Assembly: GCF_964194025.1 (NCBI RefSeq)
Contig: NC_134469.1
Location: forward strand, 1,798,001 to 1,862,000
Origin: Convolutriloba macropyga
Lineage: Eukaryota
Direction of reading: 5' to 3'
Length of the DNA: 64,000 bases
Below the pieces are notes generated by a model. The model searched no databases. It worked only from the letters and a program-made list of their open reading frames with translations, and was not told the origin of the DNA. The translations under genes were made by a program, and so were the position numbers. How positions within the stretch are numbered: position 1 is the stretch's first letter; every line of letters begins with the position of its first letter. Positions 3,865 to 55,716 of the stretch are shown piece after piece.

Positions 3865-3923
3865 CTGAAACCACAAAAAATTGCAAAAAGAACCAAGTTT
3901 TACAAATCAGCTTGTGACTATTC

Positions 3924-14262: not shown

Positions 14263-14682
14263 CTGAACAAAGAGTTGCAATTCAAATTAGATAAATAAGT
14301 TGAAACAATTTTTAAGATCTGCGTGATTCTTTAACTATGAAGAATTCTTTAACTTTACCTGACCAAAGTGGGGAGAATAGAAACATATATTTCATATCTG
14401 GAAAACAAAAAATGAGCTGTTGAAAATTGATTTATTAAACTGGTGATCTGTTGTTTTATAAACCTAGTCATGGTAACCAAGTTAATTCATTCCGCAAAAA
14501 GAAAAAAAATTAACTATAAAATAAGTTGAAAGATCTGCGTGACCTGCGTGATTCTTTAACTACTTAATGTAGCAAAACTAAGATCAAAACTATGTTCAGT
14601 ATTAAAGATTAAGTCAAATATCTTTTAAATGGGTGCTTAAGAAATCTCAGCTCTCTTGTCCACTTCAAATGGTTATCTTGCA

Positions 14683-15830
14683 TGATCCTAGAAGAATCTT
14701 GCAAGATCATCATTCGCCTTGCAAAAATCTTGCAAGATCCTAGAAGAATCTTGCAAGATCATCATTCGCCTTGCAAGAATCTTGCAAGATCCTAGAAGAA
14801 TCTTGCAAGATCATCATTCGCCTTGCAAGAATCTTGCAAGATCCTAGAAGAATCTTGCAAGATCATCATTCGCCTTGCAAGAATCTTGCAAGATCCTAGA
14901 AGAATCTTGCAAGATCATCATTCGCCTTGCAAGAATCTTGCAAGATCCTAGAAGAATCTTGCAAGATCATCATTCGCCTTGCAAGAATCTTGCAAGATCC
15001 TAGAAGAATCTTGCAAGATCATCATTCGCCTTGCAAGAATCTTGCAAGATCCTAGAAGAATCTTGCAAGATCATCATTCGCCTTGCAAGAATCTTGCAAG
15101 ATCCTAGAAGAATCTTGCAAGATCATCATTCGCCTTGCAAGAATCTTGCAAGATCCTAGAAGAATCTTGCAAGATCATCATTCGCCTTGCAAGAATCTTG
15201 CAAGATCCTTGAGGAATCTTGCAAGATCATCATTCGCCTTGCAAGAATCTTGCAAGATCCTTGAGGAATCTTGCAAGATCATCATTCGCCTTGCAAGAAT
15301 CTTGCAAGATCCTAGAAGAATCTTGCAAGATCATCATTCGCCTTGCAAGAATCTTGCAAGATCCTAGAAGAATCTTGCAAGATCATCATTCGCCTTGCAA
15401 GAATCTTGCAAGATCCTAGAAGAATCTTGCAAGATCATCATTCGCCTTGCAAGAATCTTGCAAGATCCTAGAAGAATCTTGCAAGATCATCATTCGCCTT
15501 GCAAGAATCTTGCAAGATCCTAGAAGAATCTTGCAAGATCATCATTCGCCTTGCAAGAATCTTGCAAGATCCTAGAAGAATCTTGCAAGATCATCATTCG
15601 CCTTGCAAGAATCTTGCAAGATCCTAGAAGAATCTTGCAAGATCATCATTCGCCTTGCAAGAATCTTGCAAGATCCTAGAAGAATCTTGCAAGATCATCA
15701 TTCGCCTTGCAAGAATCTTGCAAGATCCTTGAGGAATCTTGCAAGATCATCATTCGCCTTGCAAGAATCTTGCAAGATCCTTGAGGAATCTTGCAAGATC
15801 ATCATTCGCCTAGCGAGAATTTTGCAAGAT
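14683..15830. repeat. 52-bp satellite, about 22 copies, built on the palindrome TCTTGCAAGA
   Basis: Unit gatcctagaagaatcttgcaagatcatcattcgccttgcaagaatcttgcaa, nearly invariant; variant gatccttgagg in four units. Confidence 0.95.
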
Positions 15831-17364: not shown

Positions 17365-19037
17365 GCTATGATCTTTTTTATTTTGTTGTTGAGTACGACC
17401 GTCACGCAACGAACCCGTGTAATGAAACGAGTAAGGGAAAGAGTTAATTGAGTTACAAAAGAGTACGCATGATATCAGAGACAAAGTAAGAAAAGAACCC
17501 TAACGTTAAGATGGCCACAGTCGTAGCCGTAGTCCAAAACTAAAGCCAAATTTGCAACTGTTTTCAAATTTTGCCTGACAATTACTAATTTGTAATTATT
17601 TATCTCTTCACAAGGCCCAATTTACGAGTTTTTATAAGTTTCTTTTGAATAAATAAAGCTGTAAAAAAAAATATTTGCTGCGCACAATATTTAATTTCCT
17701 TTCCAAGTAATGAAAATAATAAGTCGTCGAAATGTAGTTGCTAAAACAACCAAGTATATATCGGTTCATTGCCTCGTCGAATTGAAGCTAAGAGTTATGC
17801 CCAGAATAAATAATTACTGAGTAGAGAATTAATGAACACAATCAAATATTCTCCTGTTATTCAAATTTAAGAATCATAAACAACTTACAACAGTTGGAAG
17901 AATCCCGAATCCACTATGTCAGAGTAATTTAAGCTAATCCGAAAGATCGATTAATCGCTCTTTTCAACACTTTTTTTCTTCTTCTAGGAAAGTTGAACTC
18001 ACGCGTCAACTTCGTCTCTCCAACTATAACGAACTTATTTAACGAACTACTGCTTTTCAGATTCGCCAATCTCTCTCTGGTAGTTTTTCTGGTGCCTAAG
18101 GGTACTCAACCTTATCATTTTTTTTATCAGCAAAACGTAACGTGTCGTTCCTTTTAGAACATTCTGACCTAACGTCTAAGTGTTATAGTTGGCGTGGAAG
18201 GTCAGTCACAAGATGCCGCTTATCTTATGTTGATGTTTGTTCGAGATGACCGGAGCTGCCTGTTTATCTCGGTTTGATATTTTCAGAATATGGCACAATC
18301 CATGTTTCATGCTGAGCAATATGTGTGCAATTTTTCGCACGCTTGCTTTTTCCTTCCTAAGTAACGAATACGCATCCAATTTAAACTATGATACCTTTGT
18401 TTCCCATTTAGGCTGGAGTAATGTTCCGTTCTAAATAAAACTTTAACCGTTTCCTTAGAGTCATCAATAAAAGGAAAATAAAACTTAGCTCTTTCTGTCC
18501 CTTATTCCATTGTAGAATAGTTTCAGTGCTAATACTTTGGATTGACAGGTAATTTATCTCAACTTTCCACTCTGAACGAGGCCTTGGTAAAATGTTTTGA
18601 CTCTAGAAAAAATGTCGCTTCTTTCAAAGGAGTATAAGAAATTGGCCTTTCATCTATTTTCTATGTTTTACTTTAAAGGCCAAAAGAACGGTTTCGAGTA
18701 CCGGAAAAAGCCCGTTGTTTTTTTCAATGTGTAAGGAATTGTCCTAGGAGTGATCAGTTAAAATTTCATGGTGATCGGACTTGAGGAAGTAGAGTTTTCA
18801 AGACTTGCGGGGAGGGGTGGTGAAAATGCGGACGCCTGTATTTGGGACAATTAGGGCCCTGAAGCAGTACCAAAGAGTGGCAAATCAATATTTCATGCTC
18901 TGATAACTCAGTCAATGTGCGCACGCCATTTCTTGTTTGCCAATGATCTTATGCAAATACTAGCAAATCACCAACTAGCAAATTCATTAAACCTTAATTC
19001 CTACTAGCTTTGATTTACCTACTAACTTAGAGCGCCG

Positions 19038-19931
19038 ATGGATTTCCAATTGTATCAGTCTATTCTCAATTTTCATCGTCGTGGGACAATTCCAAAAGAT
19101 GTAAGTATTAATCGACAGAAAAGGCACCGTTTTAAACAATTATGTAGTCGCTACAGCAAACCCAAACTAACTCTTTTTAATAAAAAGACCGGACTCAAAT
19201 TATTGCACTCAAGGAGTGCAAAATTTATTATCCAAAAATTAAATCGGGCCCACGAGCATATTAAAGCAGTTGGGCTCGAACGGCTTGTTAAACAATCTTA
19301 TGATGCCCAGGGAGCCCAGCCTATCGTTCGAGAAGTAGTACGTAACTGTGATTATTGCAATGAAAAAATTACTCATCGCCGTTTTACCGGTCCCTTAGTT
19401 CATGCTTCTCGCCTTACACTGGATAGAATTTGTTATGAATTAGACCTAGTTATTACCGAAAGGCCGTTACTAGAAAAAAATTGCTTCAAGAACGCCCCTT
19501 CGTTAGATCCTACTTCTTTTATCCCTAAAACCGTGGACACTATTGATCCCGATTACAATTGCGTGTGCGCTGCACTTAGCACAATTCTGACCGGAAACCC
19601 TAATCAAGGCGGAAAAATTGAAGAAGTAATTCGTTCTTTACGAAAAGAAGGCCCGGACCGCCACTTATTAAATCTGATGGGCGCTGCCCCTTTTATTAAT
19701 GGCGCAGATGATCTTAATTTCGTTACAACAACAGATTTGAGAATGCTATCCCGAACCTTTAGAACTAATATTTATATGTTTTATGAGACCGATGAGTTCG
19801 AGCAAGCCCACTGGGATTGCTACACTGGAAATAAGATGGGCCCAAATAGAGGAAGAATTTACTTAAAGGCCGGCATGAGCGGTGGAACAATGCTTTGTTT
19901 TATTGTTACTCGTGTTAAGCAAAAAAAATGA
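19038..19931 (+). CDS. Second copy of the HHCC-OTU ORF (3' LTR), probably inactivated
   Basis: Eight amino-acid differences from the 310-aa copy including H69N and H286L; a 1-nt shorter A run alters the C-terminus (297 aa). Confidence 0.65.
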   Translation: MDFQLYQSILNFHRRGTIPKDVSINRQKRHRFKQLCSRYSKPKLTLFNKKTGLKLLHSRSAKFIIQKLNRAHEHIKAVGLERLVKQSYDAQGAQPIVREVVRNCDYCNEKITHRRFTGPLVHASRLTLDRICYELDLVITERPLLEKNCFKNAPSLDPTSFIPKTVDTIDPDYNCVCAALSTILTGNPNQGGKIEEVIRSLRKEGPDRHLLNLMGAAPFINGADDLNFVTTTDLRMLSRTFRTNIYMFYETDEFEQAHWDCYTGNKMGPNRGRIYLKAGMSGGTMLCFIVTRVKQKK

Positions 19932-20020
19932 GAAGTAAGTTGTTCAATTTAGATGACATAATTTATTAACCCGGACTAGCACACACATGACAGATATTTA
20001 AGTTAAATTAAAGTTCGCTT

Positions 20021-20374
20021 TTACACTGCATATGGACGCTCGATTTGCACTTTCTTCTTTATTTCCAATAGCGCTTGTTGCTCGGCTTTTTCGTTGTCAG
20101 ACAAGTCGCTATCACATGCCCGTTGATGCTGTTGTTCGTGTTGCTGTTGTTGTTGATCGTTTGGTGGCTGTTGTTGCTCGCTTGATTGCTGGGATTGATC
20201 ATCTGATTTCGCTGCGAGGTTCTTCTTTCTATTGTTAGACTTGCCGCTTTTTGTTCGCCTCTTTGCCTTCGTTTTGGAGTTTCGAATATGCTCTGCCCGT
20301 GGCGTTTTGCCAGCCACTGGAGGTAGTTTTATCGGGGCCTTTCCATGTCGCGCTTGAACAATTTTGCCGTCCAT
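20021..20374 (-). CDS. 3' LTR copy of the 117-aa ORF
   Basis: Same translation as 33924-34277. Confidence 0.55.
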   Translation of the reverse strand: MDGKIVQARHGKAPIKLPPVAGKTPRAEHIRNSKTKAKRRTKSGKSNNRKKNLAAKSDDQSQQSSEQQQPPNDQQQQQHEQQHQRACDSDLSDNEKAEQQALLEIKKKVQIERPYAV

Positions 20375-20871
20375 ACTGCGAGTAAGTTATATTTTAACGC
20401 CTGGCGAACAAGGGTAATAAGGGGCAAGGCCAAAAATAGCAATTAGCTATGTTCAGTTTTTAATGACCAAAAAAAGGGCACCAAATTGATTTCCTTTGAT
20501 TGGAGTTTCAGCAGGCTAAGTTTTAAAGTGAATGACCCCGAGGTTTTCCAACTCGAATAAACTTGGTCTTATTTGCCTTGCTCTAAATTGCGCCACAATT
20601 TTGTATGCCTCTTATCAGGTGTTATTTGCCGTGCAAAACTCCACTTTTGGTATTGTTGGTCATTTGTGTGCTAATTCGGTCTTATCTTTGTTAGAACAAG
20701 GTATTTGAGTCCTAAGTGTTTGATTCATTAGCCCTAATGTTAAGGCGCATATTTGTATTTGAGACCTGTCAAAATTAGGGCCTATTTATTTTACCCGCAA
20801 AAGTTCGGTGTGAAAGATAAAGTAGCGACTAACAAAGGTGTCAATAAACTACGCAGAAACTAAATTCTACA

Positions 20872-20883
20872 CCCTTCCCTTCT
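20872..20883 (-). promoter_or_regulatory. Polypurine tract
   Basis: AGAAGGGAAGGG on the minus strand directly abutting the TG of the 3' LTR. Confidence 0.85.
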
Positions 20884-21184
20884 GCATCATTATTCCCCCG
20901 AACAATCTTTGAGAAAGTTGCTCTAAGTGTAGGTTAGTTTTCGCCAGGTTCTACAAAGTTTGTGGTGGTGTTGAACTTAATTAAATTCAAAATTTGTTCC
21001 TTTTAGGAAATTGAATAACCGTCCTGTCGGCCCTCAAGTGCTTGAAATATTTTTATTCTCCCCTTGCATCTATCTGCACCAGTCAATTAGAAGGGTATCT
21101 TATATAGTAATTTTTTTTGCGTTGACAGTTCTTTTTTTTCAATTTCTACATGGTTTTCATGTGTGTTTTAGTCCTCAAACAACT

Positions 21185-21499
21185 ATGGGTAGCTTGTCGA
21201 CAGCCATTGCTGGATTTGGGGAGTACCCTGTCCGATTCCAGAATGATAAGGCGGTTGGTTTCACGGTCGTCTATCTGGACCGGACAAGGGCCATGAACCC
21301 CAGTGTTTCCAGAATTGTCGTCTTCAAGCAAGGCGGCGAAAGCGTCGAAGTTAAGCCGGAATCTTCGGAGCACCGGGACTTTGTGCGGGAGCTGCAGAGG
21401 TGGGATGAGGAATTGGTGCTGATGAGGCCAATTCCACCCGTCTATTTTCAATGCACCCACGCTATCAGTGCCCTCAAAAGCCGGTGTACGATGCAATAG
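21185..21499 (+). CDS. Antisense accessory ORF, 104 aa from the first ATG, MGSLST N-terminus
   Basis: GC-richer island starting at ATG 21185 inside the listed ORF 21011-21499; Gly2/Thr6 fits the N-myristoylation consensus. Confidence 0.45.
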   Translation: MGSLSTAIAGFGEYPVRFQNDKAVGFTVVYLDRTRAMNPSVSRIVVFKQGGESVEVKPESSEHRDFVRELQRWDEELVLMRPIPPVYFQCTHAISALKSRCTMQ

Positions 21500-21782
21500 C
21501 CTTCGTGCCACCCACCATCATTGAAAGGCCGTGGCCTTTCTCGACGCCACAAGATCGGCCGAACTGGTGGGTGGTAGACGAAAACTGAGTTTGAGTTATC
21601 TAAACTTGTAATTCTATCCTTAAACCCCTTTTAAATCTATGCTGTTGCTACTTTAATTCAGACTCTACAAACTGTTTGTTTTCTCTAAGGATATAATTAT
21701 AAATATAGTTAGCTTTGTATAAAAATTATCAAGAAACGGCAGAGTTCAATCCTTTTAGCACGAAGTCCATATACTACTTTAT

Positions 21783-22091
21783 TTATTGGTTTTTTCCCCA
21801 CATCTTTGGCGTCCAAGTGATTATCTTCTTTTCCGTTTGCGTGGACACATCCTTCAAACAAGGAGAATAAAGTATTGATTGGAATGCGGGTAACGGTTCA
21901 TTCGTCAAAGGGTTGACCCACTTAGATAACATAGCCGACTTAAATTCTTTGCCCGCCGCACTATCCAGTAAAAGCAATAATTCGTTTTCGTCTTCAAGTT
22001 GTAAAATAACAAACCTATCCTCGCAAAATTGTACCCGCTGGTATACGACAACCCAATCCAGAACTTTCGACTCCCAAATTAGAAGAACCAT
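21783..22091 (-). CDS. Accessory ORF, 102 aa, possible divergent U-box with a TQT motif
   Basis: ATG ORF containing GKEFKSAMLSKWVNPLTNEPLP and KDVSTQTE. Confidence 0.45.
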   Translation of the reverse strand: MVLLIWESKVLDWVVVYQRVQFCEDRFVILQLEDENELLLLLDSAAGKEFKSAMLSKWVNPLTNEPLPAFQSILYSPCLKDVSTQTEKKIITWTPKMWGKNQ

Positions 22092-22270
22092 GATGAAAAT
22101 GTTGTTGTTTTTTTAGGGATTATAGCTTTGATAGGCGCTGATTTTGATCTCGGGTTTTGTGGCCAAATGTATTAGTTACATTCCAGATAACAAACTTAAA
22201 TAGAGATAAATTTTGACCGCTTAAGTTGGACCGATCGGTTATATTTAATTGTCGGTTAAATCGTCGCTGC

Positions 22271-22807
22271 TCACATCCTCCCATTCACCTTCACCTTCTC
22301 GATTGTCCCGACGTGCGTAGAAAGGAGGCATCTCAGGTCCACCTTCGTTGCTAACATCTTCTTCGTTTCGGAATCTGGCTCCGCTGCCGTGGAGTCAGAG
22401 AGAACCCTGTATATTTCCACCGACGTATTCGCGTCTTCACGTTCTACAGGTCGAATAATGATTTTTATTCGTTCATTTGGAGCTAGAGGTCGATGGAGGG
22501 AGTACTTTACTTGGAATGAGTTTTCTTCTACTGAGTAGTCTTGGTCAAGGGTACCTGAATTATCCTCCGGTTTTCTATCCTCCACTAAATCCATAGTCCC
22601 CGCCTCGATAAGTAGTCGTGGTTCTGTTGACCAAGGGTTCGAAAGAAAGCAGTGGAACTCATAATACTCTGGTTCCCCAACTTCCAGAAGAATTACGTTC
22701 CCATCTATAAGATCCACCAAATGACCGTTCCATGTATCTTTGACGTCTCTAATTTTAAAAAGACGGCCAAGAGTAAAGCAGTGCCATTCGAAGTGTGTGC
22801 CACTCAT
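22271..22807 (-). CDS. Accessory ORF downstream of env, 178 aa, unknown function
   Basis: ATG-initiated, coding-like composition between AT-rich spacers, same strand as gag-pol-env; no recognised motif. Confidence 0.6.
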   Translation of the reverse strand: MSGTHFEWHCFTLGRLFKIRDVKDTWNGHLVDLIDGNVILLEVGEPEYYEFHCFLSNPWSTEPRLLIEAGTMDLVEDRKPEDNSGTLDQDYSVEENSFQVKYSLHRPLAPNERIKIIIRPVEREDANTSVEIYRVLSDSTAAEPDSETKKMLATKVDLRCLLSTHVGTIEKVKVNGRM

Positions 22808-23227
22808 TATTAGTACCTAGCGTTGAAACTCACTGAGGGTAGAATGATTTATTTTCTGTGTCAACTAATTAACTCAAATTTTACGGGTTCTCTTATCTAT
22901 TTAACGTTCGTATGCTTATCGTTCCGAGTTGAACTGTTGGCCGACCTCAAGTTCGCTCAGCCAAAGGGCGCAAGTGAAATCTTAGTGGTATCGGGATTTG
23001 TCGAGTACAACATACAAGTATTTAACTGTACAAATGAGTTTATAAATGAAAGCACCGGAATACTACTCATGAATAAAATCAAAACTGATTTTCCTAGTTA
23101 CAGTTAAGGGGTGATAGAACCATTTAAAGCACTTGTCTTAACAGGGTGGGCGAAAAAAAAATAGATACAAGTGGATAACTAACAGTTTCCGTTGTCATCG
23201 GCTCACTCTTCCCTTCACTTCTACAGT

Positions 23228-25553
23228 TTATAAAATCTTGACGCACGCCAACTCCTCTCGGTAGTCCCTGCTCCTCTGCGTTTTGCCACTGGATCCGGGG
23301 GGATAAGGTGTCGAAATGAAAGAGTCATCAAAGTCTTCTCCCAATTGAGTTGACTCCATCCCGTCGCGTTCAGAGTATGGTGGCACTTGAATGCGATCAG
23401 TCATTTTGAAATTCATTGGCCCTTGTCCACTCAAACCCGCATCTCCTCTTAGTAGGCGCTCCCAACAATTGAATCTACTCCTTCTGGCTCTCGGACTCGT
23501 CTGAGTACCAGCCGTATTCCCTTCGATAAATGCTTTGTTCATTATAACTCGGCAGAGTCCTGTGTACATCATCCAGAGTGCAATCACTAAGATTGCAGCT
23601 AAGTCAAACCATACAAACCAGCTGACAGGTCCACTGTGGTAAGCCCGCCAGTGAAATAGTGCATGCTGATTGATAATTCCTTGTGCAAAAGGTTTCGCGA
23701 TGGTTTTCATTGCTTCTTCATCTACGGTTCCTTCGGGTAGATCAACCATGTTCAAACGTAAAGTCTCCAACATCTGACTGTGAGCTTCCTCGCGAAACAC
23801 ATCTGGGATTTTCATTCCAGCTAGTTGTGTCTCCATTTCGTGCAATTCACCGAACAAAGTCCGCAGTAAGGGGTGTTGTTGAATCCTTACAACGAATCCG
23901 GTCTCGTACTGGCAAGTTCTTGGGTCCGGATATAATACCAAACTACCACTGGGGTCCTCTATGCGTCCTTTGCAGGGTGGTCGAATTAGGCAACTTTTGC
24001 AGCCGCTGATCCATTCTCCATTATCGAAGGCTTGTAAACTGTAGTTGAGCAGTCTGTAGTCGCTGGATCGCGAGTAAACCAAGTAGGTTGAGTCGTCCAA
24101 GTACTCCGCGTAAGGTTCTTCCGGTAAGGCTACCACCTGCTGTGCACAAAGCTTTAGAACTCATGTTTGCAAGTCGAAAAACAGACTAGAAAGGCACGTA
24201 GATTCTCCACTTCGTGACATTGAAAAAGGTTTTAGACACAGTTTAAGACGATTACTGCCGCTACAATGTGAAATGAGTTTCTCCTCCGTAACTTCGGCAA
24301 AATTATCTTTTCTTTCGGATATCAATAAGTAACTTCTCGAGAAACTGTATCGTGTCGCTGTTGACCCGTCTTCAATTGGTTGAGGTACTGGGACTGCGCG
24401 ATAAACTTTATGAAATCCGTTAGTGTGGTGTACAGGCACGTTTATCAGGACGTTTACGGCTGTTTCTGTAAGTACTGTTGACTCTACTAGTTCAAAGCCG
24501 TAATACGTCATTAAATCAGAACGGGGTATAGCTTCCTGCATCCTGTCAAGTTTGAGTCCGTTAAGAACTTGTCGTAAAATTTTTGGAGGTACAAGTGTTG
24601 CTGGAATATAGCCCCGAGCTAAACTGCTCAACGCGTCATCTAAGATGTAACCAAAATTGTGAAGTCCGACTTTGAATGCCGCCAATTCTGCTCTCAAAGC
24701 AAGCATAGTTTGGGTGAAGTTCGTCATTCCTACATTGAACTGAGCAGCAACCACTGCTGAGCTCTGTCTGTTGTTGTAGCAGGCCCCCCAATGTGTTTCT
24801 CCAATGTCGGTTTTATTGATAAGCTCTCCCAAAACGTTCCTGATCTTATGGAAATTGTCATTAGAATGAATTATGACTGATCATCTTTAATTGCCCTTGA
24901 GTTTTGTTTAATGAGTGGCCCAGCAGGTGGATTCGTTCCCCTGATTCAAGAGTGATCGTTCGCACCGCTCCGTCCAGAAATTCTGTCTCTTCACCAAGTC
25001 TATCCAAGTCTGCACCGCCACACAATCCGAAGAAAGAGAAGTATTGACAAAAACCAGCTTTTAGGACTGGCGCCAGGACAATAGCAGCAGCTATCCCACC
25101 TAGCAACGGTTTGACGAATCGCTTTGACCTCGACAAGCCTCCTTCTGTTCCATTCAAGTATGTTGCAGCCCTTTCCCGCATTTCGGTAAGAACAATATCA
25201 ATTTCTAGCATTTCATATTCCAATCCCTTCAGTGCAAGATATGTCGTATTCATCAAAACTTCAGTGGTAAAAGTGTTTTTGCAAAACTGTCCATGATGCT
25301 TCCTCCATCGCATTGCAAATTCGTATTGGAATTCTTGGAAAGCAATGTCCAGAGATGTCAAGTTGAGGGCAAGTAGGACTGGCAGCGGCACTGATACCCA
25401 AGTTGATTCCAGCGCACTCGCAATGATGACAGGGGTTTCCGTTGTGAAGACTGCGCCAGCTGTATGGTTAGTAGTTAAACAGATAGCACATCTCAGCAGG
25501 GAAAATAGGAAGAGTAGCCTCAGTGTCAGGAATCTGTCCGTTGTTCCTGTCAT
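23228..25553 (-). pseudogene. env: env, class I fusion glycoprotein (baculovirus F / gypsy env-like), about 775 aa, disrupted
   Basis: Signal peptide, furin site RSKR followed by hydrophobic FVKPLLGGIAAAIVLAPVL, heptad region, Cys-rich segment, TM WFVWFDLAAILVIALWMMY. One frameshift near 24870 and one in-frame TGA at 24161-24163 account for the three listed ORFs. Confidence 0.85.
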
Positions 25554-25736
25554 GACCGCGTTGACTCTAAAAGTAACAAAACGTTAAATTAAGTCATTAA
25601 AATCCGACCAAAGCCTATATTTTTCCGTATACAGAGAACCGATTAGTTTAAGTCAATATTAATCAATAACTGAGATTCATAAAAAGCAAGGGAGAAGGAT
25701 CCGGGTAACAAGTTTAAGTAAACGAGGAAAAAGTGT

Positions 25737-28700
25737 TTATTCATCGATTCCCAGTCGTATGACCGGTGCTCGGATCCTTGCCGAGCGGCGTAGCTCAACG
25801 GGTTCCTCCACTGAATTTTGGTTAATCGGTCGTGTTGCTTGTTCAACCTCTGCGTCTGGTGATCTACTCTCCCCGACGCTGTGAGGTTCTAACTGCCTTT
25901 GAACCAGTTGTCTTTGGTATTCCGGATCATTTTCACGGCTATTAGTATCCGGGGCGGCCTGATCGCCCAATTGATCAGCTGACTGCTCGACTATAGGATT
26001 ATTGATTACTCCAACTTCCTGTCCCACAGCAGGCTGTGGGACTTGAATCCCATTTCTTGGCACCAATATCGGCGGCCAGGGAATTGGGTCTGGATCCAAT
26101 TGCTCCCATTCGTCAACTTCCAGTGGTTCCTCGTAAAAATTCGTTGAACGAAACGGTGTGGCTCTACGCTCGCTCGTTTCCGGTTCCTCTTCCACGAATG
26201 GTTTAAGAAGGTTGTAGTGGAGAATACGCCATTTATCACGCCTTTGGGGTTTACTAACTTTGTAATTAACTTCCGAAGTTCTCTCAAGAACAATGTACGG
26301 TCCCTCCCACGGAAGAAAGAATTTTTTTGATGTAGCTTTATGTTTTGAGAAAACCCAAACTTTGTCATCGACTTCGTATGGTTTTCCAAAAACTTTCTTA
26401 TGAAATTGATCTTTTTGTCGGTTTTGATTTACTCCCAAAAGTTCCCGTGCATGAGAATGGGCCTCCCTGAATTGCCTATCGAGCCAGTCAACAAACTCGT
26501 TCTGGGTCCGCTCTTGATCGTGGGGCTTCGGGTAGAACAGATCAATAGGATATTGGCACTCCTGTCCATAGACGAGACTAAACGGAGTGGCTCCTGTCGT
26601 CCTATGAATAGTCGTATTATAGAGAAAATTGACATAAGGCAGCATTGTGTCCCAATCTCGAGGGTTTTCAGCGCAATATTTCGAGAGAACATCGGCAATA
26701 ACACGGTTATGTCGTTCCACTTGACCATTTTCTTGAGGGTGATACGGAGATGTTCTTGTTTTGTCCATTTTAAGCAATTTACAGAGTTCTTTAATCAAGT
26801 CACTTCCAAAGTTTTTTCCTTGGTCAGTGTGAAGTACCTCGGGCACAACAAAATGAAGGACCCAGCATTCTACAATTTCTTTTGCCACATATTTTGCTTC
26901 GGTTACAACAAGTGGAACACTGATTGCATTTTTTGTGAACAAATCCGTCATAACAAGAATGTACTTCGCTCTTGACCGTGCGGCTAGTGTAACTGGTCCT
27001 AATATATCAGCAGCGACCGTGTGAAAGCGAATACCAACTTTGAAGGGACTTAATTCTGCGGTACGTTGCCTGCCTGCCGTGGTCCGAGCTGCACATGGAA
27101 GACACCAAGAATGTTTTTTCTCTATGTCACGCCTCATGAAGGGCCACCAGAACCTCTGCCTGATTCGCATCAGTGTTTTTTCTACTTTGAAATGACCTCC
27201 ACTCACTGGGGAAGCGTGAAGTTGATCCAAAATTTCTTTTCTAAAAGAAACAGGTACAATCAGCTGCAAATGGGGTTCGTTCTTCTCTGGTTGAAACCAC
27301 TTCCTGTACAAAACTCGATTCTTAAGAACAAGCTCTGACCACCTTGACCAGTAGGCTACTACTTCAGGTCCATGCTGAACTGCCTGTTCTTTTAGAATTA
27401 GGTTAGGGCCCAGAGGCGAGCAGCTACTTTCTGATCTTGTTGGTGCCCAGTACAAAATACGGCTGATTGCCTCATCTTCATGCTGCAACCGTTCTATATC
27501 TGAGTCTGTGCGAGTCCATGTTATAGCGACCCCCTCTTCATTTTTGTCATCTATGGTTTCTGTAATAGCGTCAACCATAGCACAACGTTCACGTACCCTT
27601 TTTAGGGCTTCCTCGATTTCTTGAGGTTCGGGACACTGCCCCCATACCTGTTCTTTTTCGCCCGGCTCCCATTCAGGCTCTTCTTCCATCATCCGAGACA
27701 ACCCATCCGCATTGGCATGTTTGTTGCCCGCGCGGTGAACAATTTCGTAATTGAACTCTTGCAAATGTTGGAGCATTCTGAACGTCATGCCGTCTGCATT
27801 TTGCCTGAATAGCCATTTTAAGCTGGCGTGATCTGTACGTATGACAAAACTGAGTCCCCATATATAATGTTTGAACCATTTCAAAGCCTGAACTACCGCC
27901 AGGGCTTCCCGCTTCGTTGTAGAGTACATAGTTTCGGTCTTACTCGGGCTCCTACTTGCAAATAATATAGGATGTTCCACGCCATCGATGAAATTTGAAA
28001 GTACAGCACCCAGACTGACGTTGCTTGTATCTGTGTCAATGATAAAGGGGCAGTCATACCGAGGAAACTGTAGGACAGGTGCTGTAGCTAGTTCGAGCCC
28101 CAGTCGATCGAATGCCATTTGACAACAGGGAGTCCACTCAAATCGAGCGTTTTTCTTTGTTAGTTCATGCAAGGGACGAGCAATTTGTGCAAAGTCTTTC
28201 ACAAAGCATCGATAGTAATTGCAGAATCCAACGAATGACCGTACTTGTTTAACAGTTTTTGGCTCTGGCCATTCTCTGACAGCAGAAACCTTTTGAGGGT
28301 CTGGTCGAGCTCCCTCTTTATCGATAACATGACTGAGGTATACAACTTGTTGCTGAAGAAGTCTGCATTTCTTGGGCTTAAGTTTCAAGTTTGCTGCTCG
28401 CAACAGTTTGAATATACCTTCAATGTGTTTGAAGTGTTCTTCCTCAGTCGAATCGTACGCCAAAGCATCATCAAGAAAGATTAGAACCCACTTCCAGAGG
28501 TGATCTTTGAAAAGATTGTTCATAAGCCTTTGAGAGGTCCCGGGGGAATTAGATAGACCAAAAGGCATTTTAATGTATTCATACAGCCCACCATCAGGTG
28601 TGACGAACGCTGTTTTCTGTCTATCCTCTGGTGCTACCGGTACCTGCCAGTAGCCACTTGCTAAATCAAGAGAAGAAAAAAATTTCGCTCCCCTCAAAGC

Positions 28701-29987
28701 ATCGAAGCTCTGATCTATTTTTGGTATAGGAAAGGCGTCTTTCACCGTAACATCGTTAAGGTCGCGGTAGTCCACGCAGAACCTCCAACTACCATCCTTT
28801 TTCTTTTGAAGCACAATAGGAGCACTATAGGGACTCGATGAAGGCTGAATGACTCCCTTCTCCAGCATGCTCTTCAGTTCTTCTTGGATAATAGGTATCT
28901 TGGCCGGCGAAATACGATGCGGAGGTTTTTTGATGGGTGGGGTATCACCTGTGTCAATTTGATGCTGAACAATGTCGGTGCATCCAAGTTCATTGTTTTT
29001 CAACGCAAATACATCCCGATATTCTCGCACTAGTGTTCTCAGCCGATCGAGAGCAACACCAGAAACGCCCGGTGCAGATAATTCCAAAATTTGATCAACT
29101 TCCTGGTCTAGAGTGGGATGATCTTGGGCTTTATAGACTGTGTGAGCAACCCAATTCAAAACCTCGTCATCAGTGTCTGTCCATTGCTCATCTTCGGTTT
29201 CACTTAGATAAATTCTTTCTGAATCTTTGACCTGTGTTTCTCTAGAGAGTTGTGCTGCCATGAGATAGTCAGTTTCTTTGGGACTAGCGCCAGCGACTGC
29301 CTGCAGCTGATGATCGCTGACAAACTTTTTATCCTGCATTGACGGGTCCATTTCAGTTTCGCGACAGTAACGGTAGCTGCCAACTGCAGTCAGAGAAACC
29401 ATGCGCATTACCACCGCCGAACTTTCTTTGCTGCCTGTCCACATTTCGTTTGATCTAAAGTCAATTGCAAAACCATGGCGTTTCATTTCCTTGAGGCCAA
29501 GTATCATCTGAGGCTTCAAGTTCTGCAACACTAGAACGTGTATTTCCTCGCATATAGAACCCAACTTTAACTCCAATACTGCGCGACCAAGAACATTTAT
29601 AGTCTTTCCGTCGGCTGACTCTAAGCGGCCTTTGTATGGCAAAATTCTCGCAAAGCGATCCAAGCTGAAGAGTTTTTCTGCTTGCATTAGATTTGTTGAT
29701 GCCCCCGTATCAATCAATATTTCCGTTATCGAGTCGTTCACTATTCCGTCAACCACGGCTGCTTCGGAACCCTCATCAAAATCCGACGAATCAAACTTTT
29801 TCTCATCTTCTATGGCGGTTGTATTTGTTGCTACGTGCTGTTGTTTGGCCTTTTCGTCGCAAAATTTAACTTTTCTTGCGTCAAAGTTTGCATTATCATT
29901 ATCTTTTAGTCTATTTGCTTTGAATTCGGCCGGGATAAAGCCTTCTTTACGAAAAATTGTGGCCCTCCCGGCCTCTAGTAGTTTAAA
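25737..29987 (-). CDS. pol: Pol polyprotein (PR, RT, RNase H, integrase), expressed by -1 frameshift from gag
   Basis: LIDTGAS protease; WRFCVDYR, LDLASGYWQ, MPFGL and FLDD RT; TDHASL and NADGLSR RNase H; HHCC plus D-D-E (ADILGP, TDQG, VERHN) and WEGPY integrase; C-terminal LRRSAR. The frame is open but several conserved residues are substituted. Confidence 0.95.
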   Translation of the reverse strand, partial: FKLLEAGRATIFRKEGFIPAEFKANRLKDNDNANFDARKVKFCDEKAKQQHVATNTTAIEDEKKFDSSDFDEGSEAAVVDGIVNDSITEILIDTGASTNLMQAEKLFSLDRFARILPYKGRLESADGKTINVLGRAVLELKLGSICEEIHVLVLQNLKPQMILGLKEMKRHGFAIDFRSNEMWTGSKESSAVVMRMVSLTAVGSYRYCRETEMDPSMQDKKFVSDHQLQAVAGASPKETDYLMAAQLSRETQVKDSERIYLSETEDEQWTDTDDEVLNWVAHTVYKAQDHPTLDQEVDQILELSAPGVSGVALDRLRTLVREYRDVFALKNNELGCTDIVQHQIDTGDTPPIKKPPHRISPAKIPIIQEELKSMLEKGVIQPSSSPYSAPIVLQKKKDGSWRFCVDYRDLNDVTVKDAFPIPKIDQSFDALRGAKFFSSLDLASGYWQVPVAPEDRQKTAFVTPDGGLYEYIKMPFGLSNSPGTSQRLMNNLFKDHLWKWVLIFLDDALAYDSTEEEHFKHIEGIFKLLRAANLKLKPKKCRLLQQQVVYLSHVIDKEGARPDPQKVSAVREWPEPKTVKQVRSFVGFCNYYRCFVKDFAQIARPLHELTKKNARFEWTPCCQMAFDRLGLELATAPVLQFPRYDCPFIIDTDTSNVSLGAVLSNFIDGVEHPILFASRSPSKTETMYSTTKREALAVVQALKWFKHYIWGLSFVIRTDHASLKWLFRQNADGMTFRMLQHLQEFNYEIVHRAGNKHANADGLSRMMEEEPEWEPGEKEQVWGQCPEPQEIEEALKRVRERCAMVDAITETIDDKNEEGVAITWTRTDSDIERLQHEDEAISRILYWAPTRSESSCSPLGPNLILKEQAVQHGPEVVAYWSRWSELVLKNRVLYRKWFQPEKNEPHLQLIVPVSFRKEILDQLHASPVSGGHFKVEKTLMRIRQRFWWPFMRRDIEKKHSWCLPCAARTTAGRQRTAELSPFKVGIRFHTVAADILGPVTLAARSRAKYILVMTDLFTKNAISVPLVVTEAKYVAKEIVECWVLHFVVPEVLHTDQGKNFGSDLIKELCKLLKMDKTRTSPYHPQENGQVERHNRVIADVLSKYCAENPRDWDTMLPYVNFLYNTTIHRTTGATPFSLVYGQECQYPIDLFYPKPHDQERTQNEFVDWLDRQFREAHSHARELLGVNQNRQKDQFHKKVFGKPYEVDDKVWVFSKHKATSKKFFLPWEGPYIVLERTSEVNYKVSKPQRRDKWRILHYNLLKPFVEEEPETSERRATPFRSTNFYEEPLEVDEWEQLDPDPIPWPPILVPRNGIQVPQPAVGQEVGVINNPIVEQSADQLGDQAAPDTNSRENDPEYQRQLVQRQLEPHSVGESRSPDAEVEQATRPINQNSVEEPVELRRSARIRAPVIRLGIDE
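29928..29987 (-). promoter_or_regulatory. -1 ribosomal frameshift signal
   Basis: Slippery T TTA AAC in the gag frame (29987-29981), 7-nt spacer, then GGCCGGGA (29973-29966) pairing with TCCCGGCC (29935-29928). pol is in the -1 frame. Confidence 0.85.
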
Positions 29988-31126
29988 GGACCGGTCTGTT
30001 GTTGGGTTTGGCGCTCTGGGCAATCCTTAACAAAATGACCTTCCTGACCACATTGGAAACACTGCCTTCCCGCAACTGCTAATCGTCTGTCGAGGCTGTT
30101 TTGTTGCGCTGGTACACCACTGTACTGCGCATTGTTCGGTTTTGGACTGATGAATTGTTGACCGTAACGGCTATCGGGCGGATAAGGATTGTATAGACGT
30201 TTCTCGTCGCTTTCCTGTTTTGGTTTTTTGTCACTATGTGGGACCTCATATTGCTTTGAAATTACTGACGTCACAAATTTGCTCATCATATTTGACATAT
30301 TCTTCATAAACTCGGCCTGACTGTTTACTAGTTGATCAATCTTAGCATTGACAGACCCCGAAAGATCCGTAGATTTCTCAGCAGTTGCGAACACTCTGGA
30401 TGCATTGCCTCTCTGCATCAATTCATTACTCTGAGTATTCCCCTGAATCTCAACGGGGTTTTCAACAACTGATCTTAAGGACGCTAACCTTCGTCGCTGT
30501 CTCATACGAGAATTACGTGCGACAGCATCAAGGCTCAGTGCCCTATTTATAGCAGCGGAGAAGTTTTGGGGATCTTCTCTAAGTAAAAGTTCTTGGATTT
30601 CAGCGTCGTAGAGCCCATCGATAAACTGTTCGCGGTTCATATCGTCACGGGTTGCAGCATTCATGTTATGGTTCGCAACCTCCCCGGTGGACCGTATTCT
30701 CCTTGAAAATTCCTGAATTTCCTCCTTTTCGCCTTGAATAAGGTTTTTGAATTCGGCTCGAGCAGTTCGTTGGTTTCGAAATGGCATCATTCGAGGGTCT
30801 AAGTATTCAAACAATCGCTCCAGAGTAGGTGCCGGGTGCCCATCTTCTTGTTCTCGAAAGTGGTTGGGCATTGCAGTGTATTCATCAAGGGCCCAGCCTG
30901 TGAGGCAGGTTGGGACACAAGCCATTGCTTGTTCTTCATCCCAACGATTCGACTCAACAATGCATAAAAAATGTTTTTTCCAATCTACCCAAGTTTTGTA
31001 TATCAGATTAGGAAAACGATCGGGTTGGCGTGCACCTCGCCCATACAATCCTTGACCATTCAGTGCGTCCGCAGCTTGAATGGCTGCTTCGGCAATTCGT
31101 TGAATATCTTCCGCTTGCAACGCCAT
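29975..31126 (-). CDS. gag: Gag, 383 aa, with one CCHC zinc knuckle
   Basis: Capsid-like W..W..HF...NRW...L.G.A segment, QG..E.I..F motif, CFQCGQEGHFVKDC knuckle. Confidence 0.92.
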   Translation of the reverse strand: MALQAEDIQRIAEAAIQAADALNGQGLYGRGARQPDRFPNLIYKTWVDWKKHFLCIVESNRWDEEQAMACVPTCLTGWALDEYTAMPNHFREQEDGHPAPTLERLFEYLDPRMMPFRNQRTARAEFKNLIQGEKEEIQEFSRRIRSTGEVANHNMNAATRDDMNREQFIDGLYDAEIQELLLREDPQNFSAAINRALSLDAVARNSRMRQRRRLASLRSVVENPVEIQGNTQSNELMQRGNASRVFATAEKSTDLSGSVNAKIDQLVNSQAEFMKNMSNMMSKFVTSVISKQYEVPHSDKKPKQESDEKRLYNPYPPDSRYGQQFISPKPNNAQYSGVPAQQNSLDRRLAVAGRQCFQCGQEGHFVKDCPERQTQQQTGPLNY

Positions 31127-31407
31127 TTTTGTTATGTAATTGCTTAGCCGCTTAAACTAGAGTGTTCTTCTAAATTTTGCGAATCCACTTCTTGTCTTAC
31201 TTCGCGATCTCGCCGGAGTCTGAGTAGTTCTCTCAATCTATCAGCCCGACTTCTGGTTTGAGTTAATTGATTTGTACTCGGGAATTCGGGTAGGTGTTCT
31301 TCGCTTCTTTGGGCGAGTATTGAATCCAATTTTGAGGAAGTATGTTGTACACCTCTTGAATTGAGACCCAACTTCGTAAAATCTAATCTATTTTAATCTG
31401 TCAGAAA

Positions 31408-31425
31408 GCCCACCCAGGAGCGCCA
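31408..31425 (-). promoter_or_regulatory. Primer-binding site, tRNA-Asn-like
   Basis: Minus strand TGGCGCTCCTGGGTGGGC; its complement GCCCACCCAGGAGCGCCA resembles the 3' end of metazoan tRNA-Asn(GTT) (...GCCCACCCAGGGACGCCA in human). Confidence 0.8.
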
Positions 31426-32939
31426 CTGTAGAATTTTGTATTTTTATCGTTAGAAGGCTGACCGGACTGGCAAGCGCCCAAAACTCTATCAAATTTGAAA
31501 GGTTCTTCGAAGAAAAGTGAGTCCTTCTGACAATTAGGTATAAAGTTTTGTCCCCTGTGCTCTCTCAAAGCTGTAAAAAAAAATATTTGCTGCGCACAAT
31601 ATTTAATTTCCTTTCCAAGTAATGAAAATAATAAGTCGTCGAAATGTAGTTACTAAAACAACCAAGTATATATCGGTTCATTGCCTCGTCGAATTGAAGC
31701 TAAGAGTTATGCCCAGAATAAATAATTACTGAGTAGAGAATTAATGAACACAATCAAATATTCTCCTGTTATTCAAATTTAAGAATCATAAACAACTTAC
31801 AACATTTGGAAGAATCCCGAATCCACTAAGTCAGAGTAATTTAAGCAAATCCGAAAGATCGATTAATCGCTCTTTTTAACACTTTTTTTCTTCTTCTAGG
31901 AAAGTTGAACTCACGCGTCAACTTCGTCTCTCCAACTATAACGAACTTATTTAACGAACTACTGCTTTTCAGATTCGCCAATCTCTCTCTGGTAGTTTTT
32001 CTGGTGCCTAAGGATACTCAACCTTATCAGTTTTTTTATCAGCAAAACGTAACGTGTCGTTCCTTTTAGAACATTCTGACCTAACGTCTAAGTGTTATAG
32101 TTGGCGTGGAAGGTCAGTCACAAGATGCCGCTTATCTTATGTTGATGTTTGTTCGAGATGACCGGAGCTGCCTGTTTATCTCGGTTTGATAATTTCAGAA
32201 TATGGCACAATCCATGTTTCATGCTGAGCAATATGTGTGCAATTTTTCGCACGCTTGCTTTTTCCTTCCTAAGTAACGAATATGCATCCAATTTAAACTA
32301 TGATACCTTTGTTTCCCATTTAGGCTGGAGTAATGTTCCGTTCTAAATAAAACTTTAACCATTTCCTTAGAGTCATCAAAAAAGGAAAATAAAACTTAGC
32401 TCTTTCTGTCCCTTATTCCATTGTAGAATAGTTTCAGTGCTAATACTTTGGATTGACAGGTAATTTATCTCAACTTTCCACTCTGAACTGGTAAAATGTT
32501 TTGACTCTAGAAAAAATGTCGCTTCTTTCAAAGGAGTATAAGAAATTGGCCTTTCATCTATTTTCTATGTTTTACTTTAAAGGCCAAAAGAACGGTTTCG
32601 GGTACCGGAAAAAGCCCGTTGTTTTTTTCAATGTGTAAGGAATTGTCCTAGGAGTGATCAGTTAAAATTTCATGGTGATCGGACTTGAGGAAGTAGGGTT
32701 TTCAAGACTTGCGGGGGGGTGGTGAAAATGCGGACGCCTGGATTTGGGACAATTAGGGCCCTGAAGCAGTACCAAAGAGTGGCAAATCAATATTTCATGC
32801 TCTGATAACTCAGTCAATGTGCGCACGCCATTTCTTGTTTGCCAATGATCTTATGCAAATACTAGCAAATCACCAACTAGCAAATTCATTAAACCTTAAT
32901 TCCTACTAGCTTTGATTTACCTACTAACTTAGAGCGCCG

Positions 32940-33872
32940 ATGGATTTCCAATTGTATCAGTCTATTCTCAATTTTCATCGTCGTGGGACAATTCCACAAG
33001 ATGTAAGTATTAATCGACAGAAAAGGCACCGTTTTAAACAATTATGTAGTCGCTACAGCAAACCCAAACTAACCCTTTTTAATAAAAAGACCGGACTCAA
33101 AGTATTGCACTCAAGGAGTGCAAAATTTTTTATCCAAAAATTACATCGGGCCCACGAGCATATTAAAGCAGTTGAGCTCGAACGGCTTGTTAAACAATCT
33201 TATGATGTCCAGGGAGCCCAGCCTATCGTTCGAGAAGTAGTACGTAACTGTGATTATTGCAATGAAAAAATTACTCATCGCCGTTTTACCGGTCCCTTAG
33301 TTCATGCTTCTCGCCTTACACTGGATAGAATTTGTTATGAATTAGACCTAGTTATTACCGAAAGGCCGTTACTAGAAAAAAATTGCTTCAAGAACGCCCC
33401 TTCGTTAGATCCTACTTCTTTTATCCCTAAAACCGTGGACACTATTGATCCCGATTACAATTGCGTGTGCGCTGCACTTAGCACAATTCTGACCGGAAAC
33501 CCTAATCAAGGCGGAAAAATTGAAGAAGTAATTCGTTCTTTACGAAAAGAAGGCCCGGACCGCCACTTATTAAATCTGATGGGCGCTGCCCCTTTTATTA
33601 ATGGCCCAGATGATCTTAATTTCGTTACAACAACAGATTTGAGAATGCTATCCCGAACCTTTAGAACTAATATTTATATGTTTTATGAGACCGATGAGTT
33701 CGAGCAAGCCCACTGGGATTGCTACACTGGAAATAAGATGGGCCCAAATAGAGGAAGAATTTACTTAAAGGCCGGCATGAGCGGTGGAACAATGCATTGT
33801 TTTATTGTTACTCGTGTTAAGCAAAAAAAAATGAGAAGTAAGTTGTTCAATTTAGATGACATAATTTATTAA
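32940..33872 (+). CDS. LTR-encoded antisense protein: integrase-type HHCC zinc finger + OTU-like cysteine protease (apparently intact copy)
   Basis: H69/H74...C104xxC107 preceded by a GIN1/Ginger-like N-terminal segment. IDPDYNCVCAALSTILTG resembles the OTU D-x-N-C box; TDL..LS..F..NIY, W..Y, IYL and H286 follow. Confidence 0.7.
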   Translation: MDFQLYQSILNFHRRGTIPQDVSINRQKRHRFKQLCSRYSKPKLTLFNKKTGLKVLHSRSAKFFIQKLHRAHEHIKAVELERLVKQSYDVQGAQPIVREVVRNCDYCNEKITHRRFTGPLVHASRLTLDRICYELDLVITERPLLEKNCFKNAPSLDPTSFIPKTVDTIDPDYNCVCAALSTILTGNPNQGGKIEEVIRSLRKEGPDRHLLNLMGAAPFINGPDDLNFVTTTDLRMLSRTFRTNIYMFYETDEFEQAHWDCYTGNKMGPNRGRIYLKAGMSGGTMHCFIVTRVKQKKMRSKLFNLDDIIY

Positions 33873-33923
33873 CCCGGACTAGCACACACATGACAGATAT
33901 CTAAGTTAAATTAAAGTTCGCTT

Positions 33924-34277
33924 TTACACTGCATATGGACGCTCGATTTGCACTTTCTTCTTTATTTCCAATAGCGCTTGTTGCTCGGCTTTTTCGTTGT
34001 CAGACAAGTCGCTATCACATGCCCGTTGATGCTGTTGTTCGTGTTGCTGTTGTTGTTGATCGTTTGGTGGCTGTTGTTGCTCGCTTGATTGCTGGGATTG
34101 ATCATCTGATTTCGCTGCGAGGTTCTTCTTTCTATTGTTAGACTTGCCGCTTTTTGTTCGCCTCTTTGCCTTCGTTTTGGAGTTTCGAATATGCTCTGCC
34201 CGTGGCGTTTTGCCAGCCACTGGAGGTAGTTTTATCGGGGCCTTTCCATGTCGCGCTTGAACAATTTTGCCGTCCAT
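33924..34277 (-). CDS. LTR-encoded 117-aa basic / poly-Q / acidic protein, function unknown
   Basis: ATG ORF with K/R cluster (KTKAKRRTKSGKSNNRKK), Q-rich tract and acidic helix; identical translation in both LTRs; AATAAA about 55 nt downstream on the minus strand. Confidence 0.55.
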   Translation of the reverse strand: MDGKIVQARHGKAPIKLPPVAGKTPRAEHIRNSKTKAKRRTKSGKSNNRKKNLAAKSDDQSQQSSEQQQPPNDQQQQQHEQQHQRACDSDLSDNEKAEQQALLEIKKKVQIERPYAV

Positions 34278-34911
34278 ACTGCGAGTAAGTTATATTTTAA
34301 CGCCTGGCGAACAAGGGTAATAAGGGGCAAGGCCAAAAATAGCAATTAGCTATGTTCAGTTTTTAATGACCAAAAAAAGGGCACCAAATTGATTTCCTTT
34401 GATTGGAGTTTCAGCAGGCTAAGTTTTAAAGTGAATGACCCCGAGGTTTTCCAACTCGAATAAACTTGGTCTTATTTGCCTTGCTCTAAATTGCGCCACA
34501 ATTTTGTATGCCTCTTATCAGGTGTTATTTGCCGTGCAAAACTCCACTTTTGGTATTGTTGGTCATTTGTGTGCTAATTTGGTCTTATCTTTGTTAGAAC
34601 AAGGTATTTGAGTCCTAAGTGTTTGTTTCATTAGCCCTAATGTTAAGACGCATATTTGTATTTGAGACCTGTCAAAATTAGGGCCTATTTATTTTACCCG
34701 CAAAAGTTCGGTGTGAAAGATAAAGTTGCGACTAACAAAGGTGTCAATAAACTACGCAGAAACTAAATTCTACAATAATGTTAACTTTGCAAAAAGATTG
34801 TGACCAAGCGGTAGAGTTCGTTCCAGTCGAGTTCTGCTTAATTTAGCAATGTGAGTTATTTTCCTGACCATTTCTCGGTGATTGTTCAATTCAATTCAAA
34901 AATGCGAACAG

Positions 34912-35109
34912 CCCGGGTCGAGGTTTGGTCAAAAATTAATGTAAGATTAGCATTGAATGCATTGAATTTTGTAAGATTTGCGGCTTTAGCGCTTAAAAGT
35001 TTTTTCACCGCATTCAACGCATTGACCACAAATCTTACACTTTTTATTCAAATTCACCGCACATCTTACATCTTTTTAGCAATTTTTAGAGGTGACACCT
35101 CGACCCGGG
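34912..35109. mobile_element. MITE with CCCGGGTCGAGGT TIRs and 2-bp TSD (AG)
   Basis: 13-bp perfect TIR, AG on both flanks, internal inverted aatgtaagatt-like repeats. Confidence 0.75.
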
Positions 35110-55700: not shown

Positions 55701-55716
55701 CGCTAAAGATTTCAGA
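49776..55716. repeat. Tandem array of four ~1485-bp units
   Basis: Units start at 49776, 51261, 52746 and 54229; near-identical with scattered SNPs and homopolymer indels. Confidence 0.95.

Follow-up and report, generated by a model that had tools for sequence, protein, structure and literature searches.

A 3.3-kb LTR with two convergent genes, one of them of predicted OTU fold, in a gypsy element with an env-like gene from Convolutriloba macropyga

The extra genes of retrotransposons with a long terminal repeat (LTR) mostly lie internally, and the LTR-coded proteins known so far come from vertebrate retroviruses. The accessory proteins nef of human immunodeficiency virus (HIV), bel2 of foamy viruses and HBZ of human T-cell leukaemia virus type 1 (HTLV-1) are coded in or from the LTR. 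In this work a stretch of 64,000 nucleotides from Convolutriloba macropyga (NC_134469.1, positions 1,798,001 to 1,862,000 of the forward strand) was analysed. This whole stretch is called the window, and its coordinates are used throughout. It holds a Ty3/gypsy element whose 3348-bp LTR contains two whole open reading frames, ORF1 and ORF2. ORF2 resembles a U3 sense gene and ORF1 an LTR-driven antisense gene of the kind found in HIV, foamy virus, HTLV-1 and mouse mammary tumour virus (MMTV). Systems of the MMTV sag type belong to vertebrate retroviruses and have one LTR gene, whereas here two whole genes, one of them for a probable enzyme, are located in the LTR of a metavirus. The sag product is described as an LTR-coded accessory protein (PMC11998498), and antisense genes of HTLV are mentioned in PMC11963269.

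Among retrotransposons, long LTRs are found in the giant gypsy elements Ogre and Burro (1.9-6.5 kb in plant Ogre), but their long repeats are described as non-coding (PMC6431247). Captured extra or antisense ORFs occur in Retand (PMC11963269) and in rotifer elements, whose ORF3s belong here and whose LTRs have 159-551 bp (PMC5408684), and enzymatic extras are known in this group of elements; in contrast to the present genes, such extra ORFs are described as internal. Env-bearing gypsy elements occur across animals (PMC13524379). The "ancient errantiviruses" of that study share with the present element the gag-pol-env order, a tRNA primer binding site (PBS), a weak F-protein match and multiple copies in an animal, and differ from it in that here a 3.3-kb LTR carries two genes and three extra ORFs are internal. 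The words "OTU" and "antisense" are absent from the main text of PMC13524379. In a literature search of incomplete coverage, no publication describing an LTR with a gene for OTU or an integrase fragment inside it was listed; the family could be among the 1512 elements in the supplements of PMC13524379, which that coverage did not include.

The other close systems are DNA transposons. In Helitrons, VTD and OTU deubiquitinase domains have been proposed to guard the transposition proteins from degradation; they are fused to RepHel, whereas the protein described here is stand-alone and LTR-borne (PMC9741609). In the same source, transposon OTU domains are described as never assayed for activity. 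Ginger1 transposases have the order YPYY-H2C2-DDE-GPY/F-OTU, with OTU or Ulp1 as the C-terminus (PMC2836005). The present LTR resembles Ginger1 in a candidate aromatic/proline motif before the H2C2 finger, the C-terminal OTU, the TGTNR ends and a similar unit length. However, Ginger1 transposases have 500-800 aa with DDE and GPY/F, while ORF1 (297 aa in the 3' LTR copy) is without both, and Ginger1 inverted repeats have 40-270 bp, compared with 10-13 bp here, in a direct repeat accompanied by a PBS and a polypurine tract (PPT) (PMC2836005). Because the DDE core and the long inverted repeats are both missing, the unit is filed as a gypsy LTR with an OTU-fold gene and not as a Ginger1 element. 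The combination of a gypsy LTR with an OTU/integrase-fragment gene is real and family-wide; its components are each known separately.

The stretch 31427-34774 was identified as the 5' LTR of an animal Ty3/gypsy element with an env-like gene. The following features carry this assignment and the two genes.

31427 to 34774, minus strand: 5' LTR, 3348 bp, TG...CA ends, perfect 10-bp terminal inverted repeat
17655 to 20871, minus strand: 3' LTR twin, 98.8% identity, final 140 bp missing
31408 to 31425, minus strand: primer binding site that is complementary to the 3' end of a tRNA
20872 to 20883, minus strand: polypurine tract, seen in the sequence, abutting the 3' LTR
32940 to 33872, plus strand (antisense to the element): ORF1, 310 aa, with integrase N-terminal extension and HHCC at about 1-110 and predicted OTU-fold protease at about 150-295
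19038 to 19931, plus strand: ORF1 copy in the 3' LTR, 297 aa, with altered zinc ligand (69) and catalytic histidine (286)
33924 to 34277, minus strand (sense): ORF2, 117 aa, with basic N-terminal half, Q-rich middle and acidic helical C-terminus
20021 to 20374, minus strand: ORF2 copy in the 3' LTR, protein identical

The repeat was defined by self-comparison of the window and sequence inspection, which revealed only one long direct repeat here, 31567-34774 against 17655-20871 (98.8% identity over 3218 columns). The twins differ by 27 substitutions and 4 indel events. The 5' copy runs 140 bp beyond its twin, as far as 31427, and these terminal 140 bp have no second occurrence anywhere in the window. 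Its inverted repeat extends to 12 of 13 positions with one mismatch. The primer site has 18 nt and lies one base off the end of the 5' LTR; its tRNA is presumably that of Asn. The PPT is a run of 12 purines. The gypsy-LTR features found are the direct repeat around gag-pol, TG...CA with a short inverted repeat in the 5' copy, PBS and PPT, the last two adjoining different LTR copies (PBS the 5', PPT the 3'). With its distal 140 bp, the 3' LTR has also lost the original flank that would carry a target-site duplication. The loose ends of two contigs from another study (run X5) fall exactly at 31427, which fits an LTR end common to other insertions. The original prediction, made from this sequence alone, had taken the LTR size of 3348 bp as real, and the inverted repeat, PBS, PPT and the twin around gag-pol-env confirm it.

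By prediction, ORF1 joins an integrase N-terminal extension and HHCC domain to a cysteine protease of the OTU type. The AlphaFold2 model, built with 38 aligned relatives, reached a predicted local distance difference test (pLDDT) value of 92.6. When it was compared with PDB by Foldseek, the top rows listed were OTU domains throughout (best E 4.9e-4). The structural scan matched residues 156-294 to OTUD3 (Z 11.1, rmsd 3.5, 125 aligned) and residues 2-107 to foamy virus integrase (Z 8.9, rmsd 2.9, 84 aligned); for the N-terminal part (2-115), Ty3 integrase (Z 7.5) and the integrase N-terminal domain of murine leukaemia virus (Z 6.4) were also found. The HHCC-OTU label given in the original prediction, barely backed by Pfam, is thus borne out by the predicted fold. 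As there are only about 40 residues between the zinc domain and the OTU in the model, no DDE core is possible in ORF1; neither this core nor a GPY/F motif was found in it, and there was no rve match (Pfam and model). A profile search of PDB sequences with ORF1 gave just His-tag and chance matches. The possibility that ORF1 is a duplicate of the element's own integrase was rejected on the lack of a BLASTP match (best E 5.5).

Cys175 and His286 are the candidate catalytic residues. The cysteine is kept in 35/35 and the histidine in 30/35 rows of at least 270 aa, across three lineages about 30% apart, a picture that derives from a quick tree. This set consists of 33 stored proteins, two of which are the window's own, and the two window copies. 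The histidine is not kept in five rows: one protein is truncated, two have C-termini that diverge, and the copy in the 3' LTR is counted twice. Judged from the model and these residues, it is quite likely that ORF1 has deubiquitinase activity. F12-P19-Y39-F47 of ORF1, with like columns in its relatives, fit YPYY as it is defined in words in PMC2836005. This candidate motif ahead of the zinc finger, together with the terminal OTU, makes a Ginger1-like origin of ORF1 likely but unanchored.

The nearest ORF1 cluster has 63 members. The near-family proteins of at least 280 aa (n = 16) are uniform in length, with 297 aa in twelve, 299 in two, 291 in one and 310 in the present copy. Within an A-run near 33823 there is a one-base difference between the two LTRs, and ORF1 has 310 aa here compared with 297 aa in the twin. 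An insertion specific to this copy had been named as the outcome that would refute the earlier reading, and it did not come true, the genes being found family-wide. More distant relatives, at 25-35% identity, keep the two-domain plan. Others, of about 148 aa (P0076, P0114, P0057, P0074, P0067 and P0072), are the integrase N-terminal module without the OTU; the P0076 cluster of this type has 35 members. The ESM Atlas gave no usable match for P0001, and integrase-zinc-finger clusters only, below 0.9, for P0076. No relative was found in scans of metagenome and viral contigs.

Twin LTRs predict that relatives of ORF1 should occur in pairs on the same contig. This pattern was observed, with pairs judged from equal-sized contigs. 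In the P0093 cluster 12 of the 13 members form six such pairs, in the P0092 cluster two of three members are paired, and in the P0076 cluster six are paired among the 15 listed of 35; P0038 and P0075 form a further pair. Pair members of the full-length families share 94.6-100% identity over the first 180 residues, and in three ORF1 pairs the partners are mutually the best match, by a margin of 7-14 points. In four runs, contig depth over ORF1 reached 1.6-6.5 times the mean of the internal region. Depth does not measure copy number; the raised value fits two or more copies per element. These data demonstrate a family-wide two-gene accessory module in the near family, and from the same-contig pairs we infer it in the families of about 30% identity. 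The LTR is long because it holds this module.

We regard ORF2 as a genuine accessory gene in the near family. It has 18 Lys/Arg among its first 56 residues and no Pfam family, and its model shows no stable fold (pLDDT 62, predicted template modelling score 0.24). Its 15 relatives (33-95% identity) mostly hold the frame via in-frame indels in the Q-rich middle. Most of them finish on the same C-terminal motif, and the most distant ones diverge past the basic half. Eleven of the 15 are on the same contig as an ORF1 relative, as judged from equal-sized contigs. The composition suggests that ORF2 is probably a nucleic-acid- or chromatin-binding protein. Two GKxP words recall what we take to be the context of Lys14 in histone H3; this likeness was unsupported by a profile search against PDB sequences, which found no histone.

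The transcription and processing signals were then considered, with the following candidates, whose functions are putative.

33865 to 33870, minus strand: AATAAA, candidate polyadenylation (polyA) signal of the ORF2 mRNA
33910 to 33915, plus strand: ATTAAA, candidate polyA signal of the ORF1 mRNA
31571 to 31672, minus strand: cluster at the PBS end with TATA-like 31667-31672, ATTAAA 31602-31607 and T9-ACAG ending at 31571, candidate R
31517 to 31914, both strands: splice-like sites, with antisense donor 31517, antisense acceptor 31899 and sense donors 31914 and 31800

The two genes had been described as convergent with overlapping 3' ends, about 50 bp apart. The ORF list agrees with the convergent arrangement. 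The coding frames do not overlap; the putative 3' untranslated regions alone would do so. The gap is 51 bp in this copy and 89 bp in the twin, and is therefore copy-specific. Both hexamers claimed near the two 3' ends are present. Only in this copy, however, does the minus-strand AATAAA overlap the stop of ORF1. As a polyA hexamer is present in 22-26% of 100-nt windows of the LTR, finding both together is about a 1-in-17 coincidence.

Acceptor-like sites were found ahead of five of seven ORFs, compared with 13-19% of background ATGs at the same threshold. They sit before ORF1, ORF2, env and two other extra ORFs; in ORF2 the site is one base ahead of the ATG. No GT(A/G)AG donor was found upstream of ORF2 within the LTR, and ORF2 may depend on a donor in the gag leader. 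ORF1 could be autonomous, as its candidate donor, acceptors and polyA hexamer are all inside one LTR. It had been proposed that every solo LTR would deposit a self-contained two-gene cassette. The deposition of both frames follows from the anatomy, whereas "self-contained" is doubtful for ORF2, which may need the donor of the gag leader.

Regarding the division of the LTR, it seems fairly probable from these signals that U3 spans about 2.7-3.1 kb and contains both genes, and that R and a short U5 lie next to the PBS. The 552 nt ahead of the gag ATG contain no other ATG (p 0.0005 against 2000 shuffles; 0/954 background ATGs), and the last 900 bases before gag contain three, compared with 9.9 expected. 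This ATG-free run, the TATA-like/ATTAAA/U-rich cluster and the donors at 31914 and 31800 favour a start no more than about 650 bp from the PBS end. The T9-ACAG ending at 31571 could be either a polyA downstream element or a splice acceptor. The 3' LTR ends at 17655, 4 bases past T9-ACAG and about 35 bases past ATTAAA, without a polyA tail; this break is near the end of R expected with a long U3, which may be chance.

The opposite division had been put forward in the original prediction, which considered a U5 of about 2.4 kb containing the ORF1 gene in case the minus-strand AATAAA is the polyA signal of the element. Here the RNA would start in the first 500-900 bp and end at 33865, and gag would be spliced via 31571. 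The AATAAA lies 54 nt past the ORF2 stop, about 290 ATG-free bases precede ORF2, and T9-ACAG is the sole sense acceptor with at least 8 pyrimidines in the element (once per LTR). On the other hand, this hexamer is common: the LTR has five sense AATAAA, this one included, and the internal region another six. The stretch from 33850 to gag contains 23 sense ATGs. The consensus donors closest to the 31571 acceptor, at 31914 and 31800, indicate a local start, as do the signals at the PBS end. A long U5 would also imply a minus-strand strong-stop DNA of more than 2.5 kb, and we know of no LTR element with one of that size. For these reasons the long U5 is not favoured and appears improbable.

Three observations around these signals can be added. 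The sense intron candidate (31914 or 31800 to 31571) overlaps the antisense one (31517 to 31899). In the 31517-31914 region a sense donor and an antisense acceptor are at most 15 bases apart, inside a small hairpin. About 80 bases upstream of the ORF1 ATG, an octamer-like word is found at 32854-32861, which is presumably a POU-factor site.

Taken as a whole, the explanation that we favour, at slightly better than even probability, is an accessory two-gene LTR module with a long U3 and a deubiquitinase, ORF1, derived from Ginger1. ORF1 would most likely come from a Ginger1-type transposase minus its DDE and GPY/F parts. Its integrase-like N-terminus would bring the deubiquitinase to the DNA ends of the element or to the integration complex, where it would strip ubiquitin either from element proteins, preventing their degradation, or from the chromatin of the provirus; this choice of targets is somewhat less likely than not. 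The RNA for ORF1 would be antisense and probably spliced, and would begin near the U5 end. ORF2 would probably be translated from a spliced sense mRNA in which the gag-leader donor is joined to an acceptor in the 3' LTR; as with the U3 genes of retroviruses, its expression could come from the 3' LTR of complete elements. Being in U3, both genes would be carried by the genomic RNA in its 3' part and copied into both LTRs.

Several observations weigh against this explanation. Pfam gave no OTU match for ORF1, and its Integrase_H2C2 scores stay below the threshold (E 0.0097). The residue at His+2 is hydrophobic. In the P0093 clade (14 rows), Asp172, ahead of the catalytic Cys, is Ser/Thr and an Arg takes the place of the fourth and last zinc Cys. 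A search of all representatives yielded 61 proteins, the longest of 286 aa, and no full-length transposase. The same-contig pairs of distant ORF1 relatives could be tandem copies instead. In three of the four runs, depth among the seven LTR bins was lowest in the first ORF1 bin, and some LTR relatives could be without ORF1 or have lost it. ORF2 relatives were found in the near family only. Of seven further ORF2 members, own contig excluded, two are paired with an ORF1 relative among those listed, and the listing covers 15 of 63 members of the main cluster. With regard to transcription, a long U3 requires reading through five sense AATAAA, and an acceptor at 31571 could account for most of the ATG-free run with any start.

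ORF1 could instead act as a self-restriction factor, in which a core-less integrase N-terminus poisons or sequesters integrase, the OTU stabilises the protein and solo LTRs keep expressing it. This would be in line with an integrase fragment without DDE and with the relatives of about 148 aa, which are limited to the N-terminal module and are likewise found in same-contig pairs. A precedent is the LTR-coded Sag, which shields mice from related MMTV (PMC11998498). However, in sequence the module shows no relationship to the integrase of the element itself, the dyad of the OTU domain is conserved, and families with ORF1 include very young, near-identical copies, which makes such a function rather unlikely.

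A functionless passenger is a further alternative, namely a non-autonomous Ginger-like DNA transposon nested in an ancestral LTR. The Ginger-like domain order and the many truncated ORF1 relatives would agree with it. The two ORF1 copies of the element differ by 8 non-synonymous and 1 synonymous changes, which fits neutral decay after insertion, but such decay is expected for any element gene. There is no internal terminal inverted repeat of at least 40 bp in the LTR (the longest arms have 26 nt at 73%), and the compact architecture and catalytic residues persist over lineages about 30% identical. This alternative is very unlikely. Finally, the LTR itself could descend from a Ginger1-like DNA transposon, two copies of which flanked gag-pol-env, became LTRs and lost the transposase core, as its 3.3 kb fall within the 2.6-4.6 kb of OTU-type Ginger1, its ends fit TGTNR (PMC2836005) and ORF1 opens with a YPYY-like module and closes with an OTU like the transposase, but with TGTNR common to ordinary gypsy LTRs too (PMC2836005), an inverted repeat of 10-13 bp instead of 40-270, no DDE remnant found in the LTR and no CCGG-type target site at the intact flank, this is the most doubtful of all.

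A wider version of the favoured explanation would involve a multi-family gypsy lineage with an LTR accessory module, expressing an active, element-aimed deubiquitinase antisense from every LTR, solo LTRs included, together with a chromatin-tail-like basic protein; at its boldest, the LTR would be a former Ginger1 transposon. In this extended form it is possible and, on balance, unlikely.

The internal region of the element was found to contain the following genes.

29975 to 31126, minus strand: gag, 383 aa, CCHC knuckle, with a consensus splice donor at 31200 in the leader
25737 to 30026, minus strand: pol, PR-RT-RNaseH-IN in the Ty3/gypsy order, open frame overlapping the gag end
23228 to 25553, minus strand: env-like gene with a weak match to baculovirus F and breaks near 24870 and at 24161
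22807 to 22271, minus strand: extra ORF between env and PPT, 178 aa, sense (ORF list)
22091 to 21783, minus strand: extra ORF between env and PPT, 102 aa, sense (ORF list)
21185 to 21499, plus strand: extra ORF between env and PPT, 104 aa, antisense (ORF list)

The env-like match came from one piece of the broken gene (Baculo_F, E 0.006, 15.6 bits compared with a curated cut-off of 24.1). The three extra ORFs gave no Pfam match, and two of them have acceptor-like sites ahead of the ATG. In contigs of other runs, relatives with about 98 different letters in the gag leader (31273-31294) were observed, as well as a form that joins the LTR start (34709) to 22450 and leaves out the PPT-side region. 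No contig covers the whole LTR, and a joint skipping the ORF region was not found among the 15 of 230 joints listed. No Rfam match was obtained within 20800-35000, and no tRNA gene within the window.

Elsewhere in the window, an element of about 200 bp with 13-bp terminal inverted repeats is located just outside the 5' LTR (34912-35109). In all four runs its contig depth is very high and loose ends are numerous at either border, which indicates a high-copy miniature inverted-repeat transposable element. At 14675-15830, a 52-bp unit that is in part palindromic occurs 22 times in tandem (99% matches), and at 49776-55719 a 1485-bp unit is present in four tandem copies (97-98% identity). In the region 6931-10245, about 1.69 kb are duplicated in tandem (93%), and the short repeats there have a strong G skew. 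Exons of an intron-split host gene of the DEG/ENaC type (amiloride-sensitive sodium channel; Pfam ASC, E 3e-21) were recognized on the minus strand at 3437-5730 and point to an animal host.

An enzyme gene has seemingly been kept in the LTRs of several families long enough for divergence to 30% identity. ORF1 would connect Ginger DNA transposons and gypsy elements through gene exchange, and as a small, well-folding protein it is suited for probing the function of transposon OTU domains (PMC9741609). Such elements may be overlooked by LTR finders with length or score ceilings. Solo LTRs could spread the deubiquitinase gene through the genome, and ORF1 may help the element to evade host ubiquitin defences. 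If ORF1 is active, ubiquitin would be a likely host defence against retroelements in this animal.

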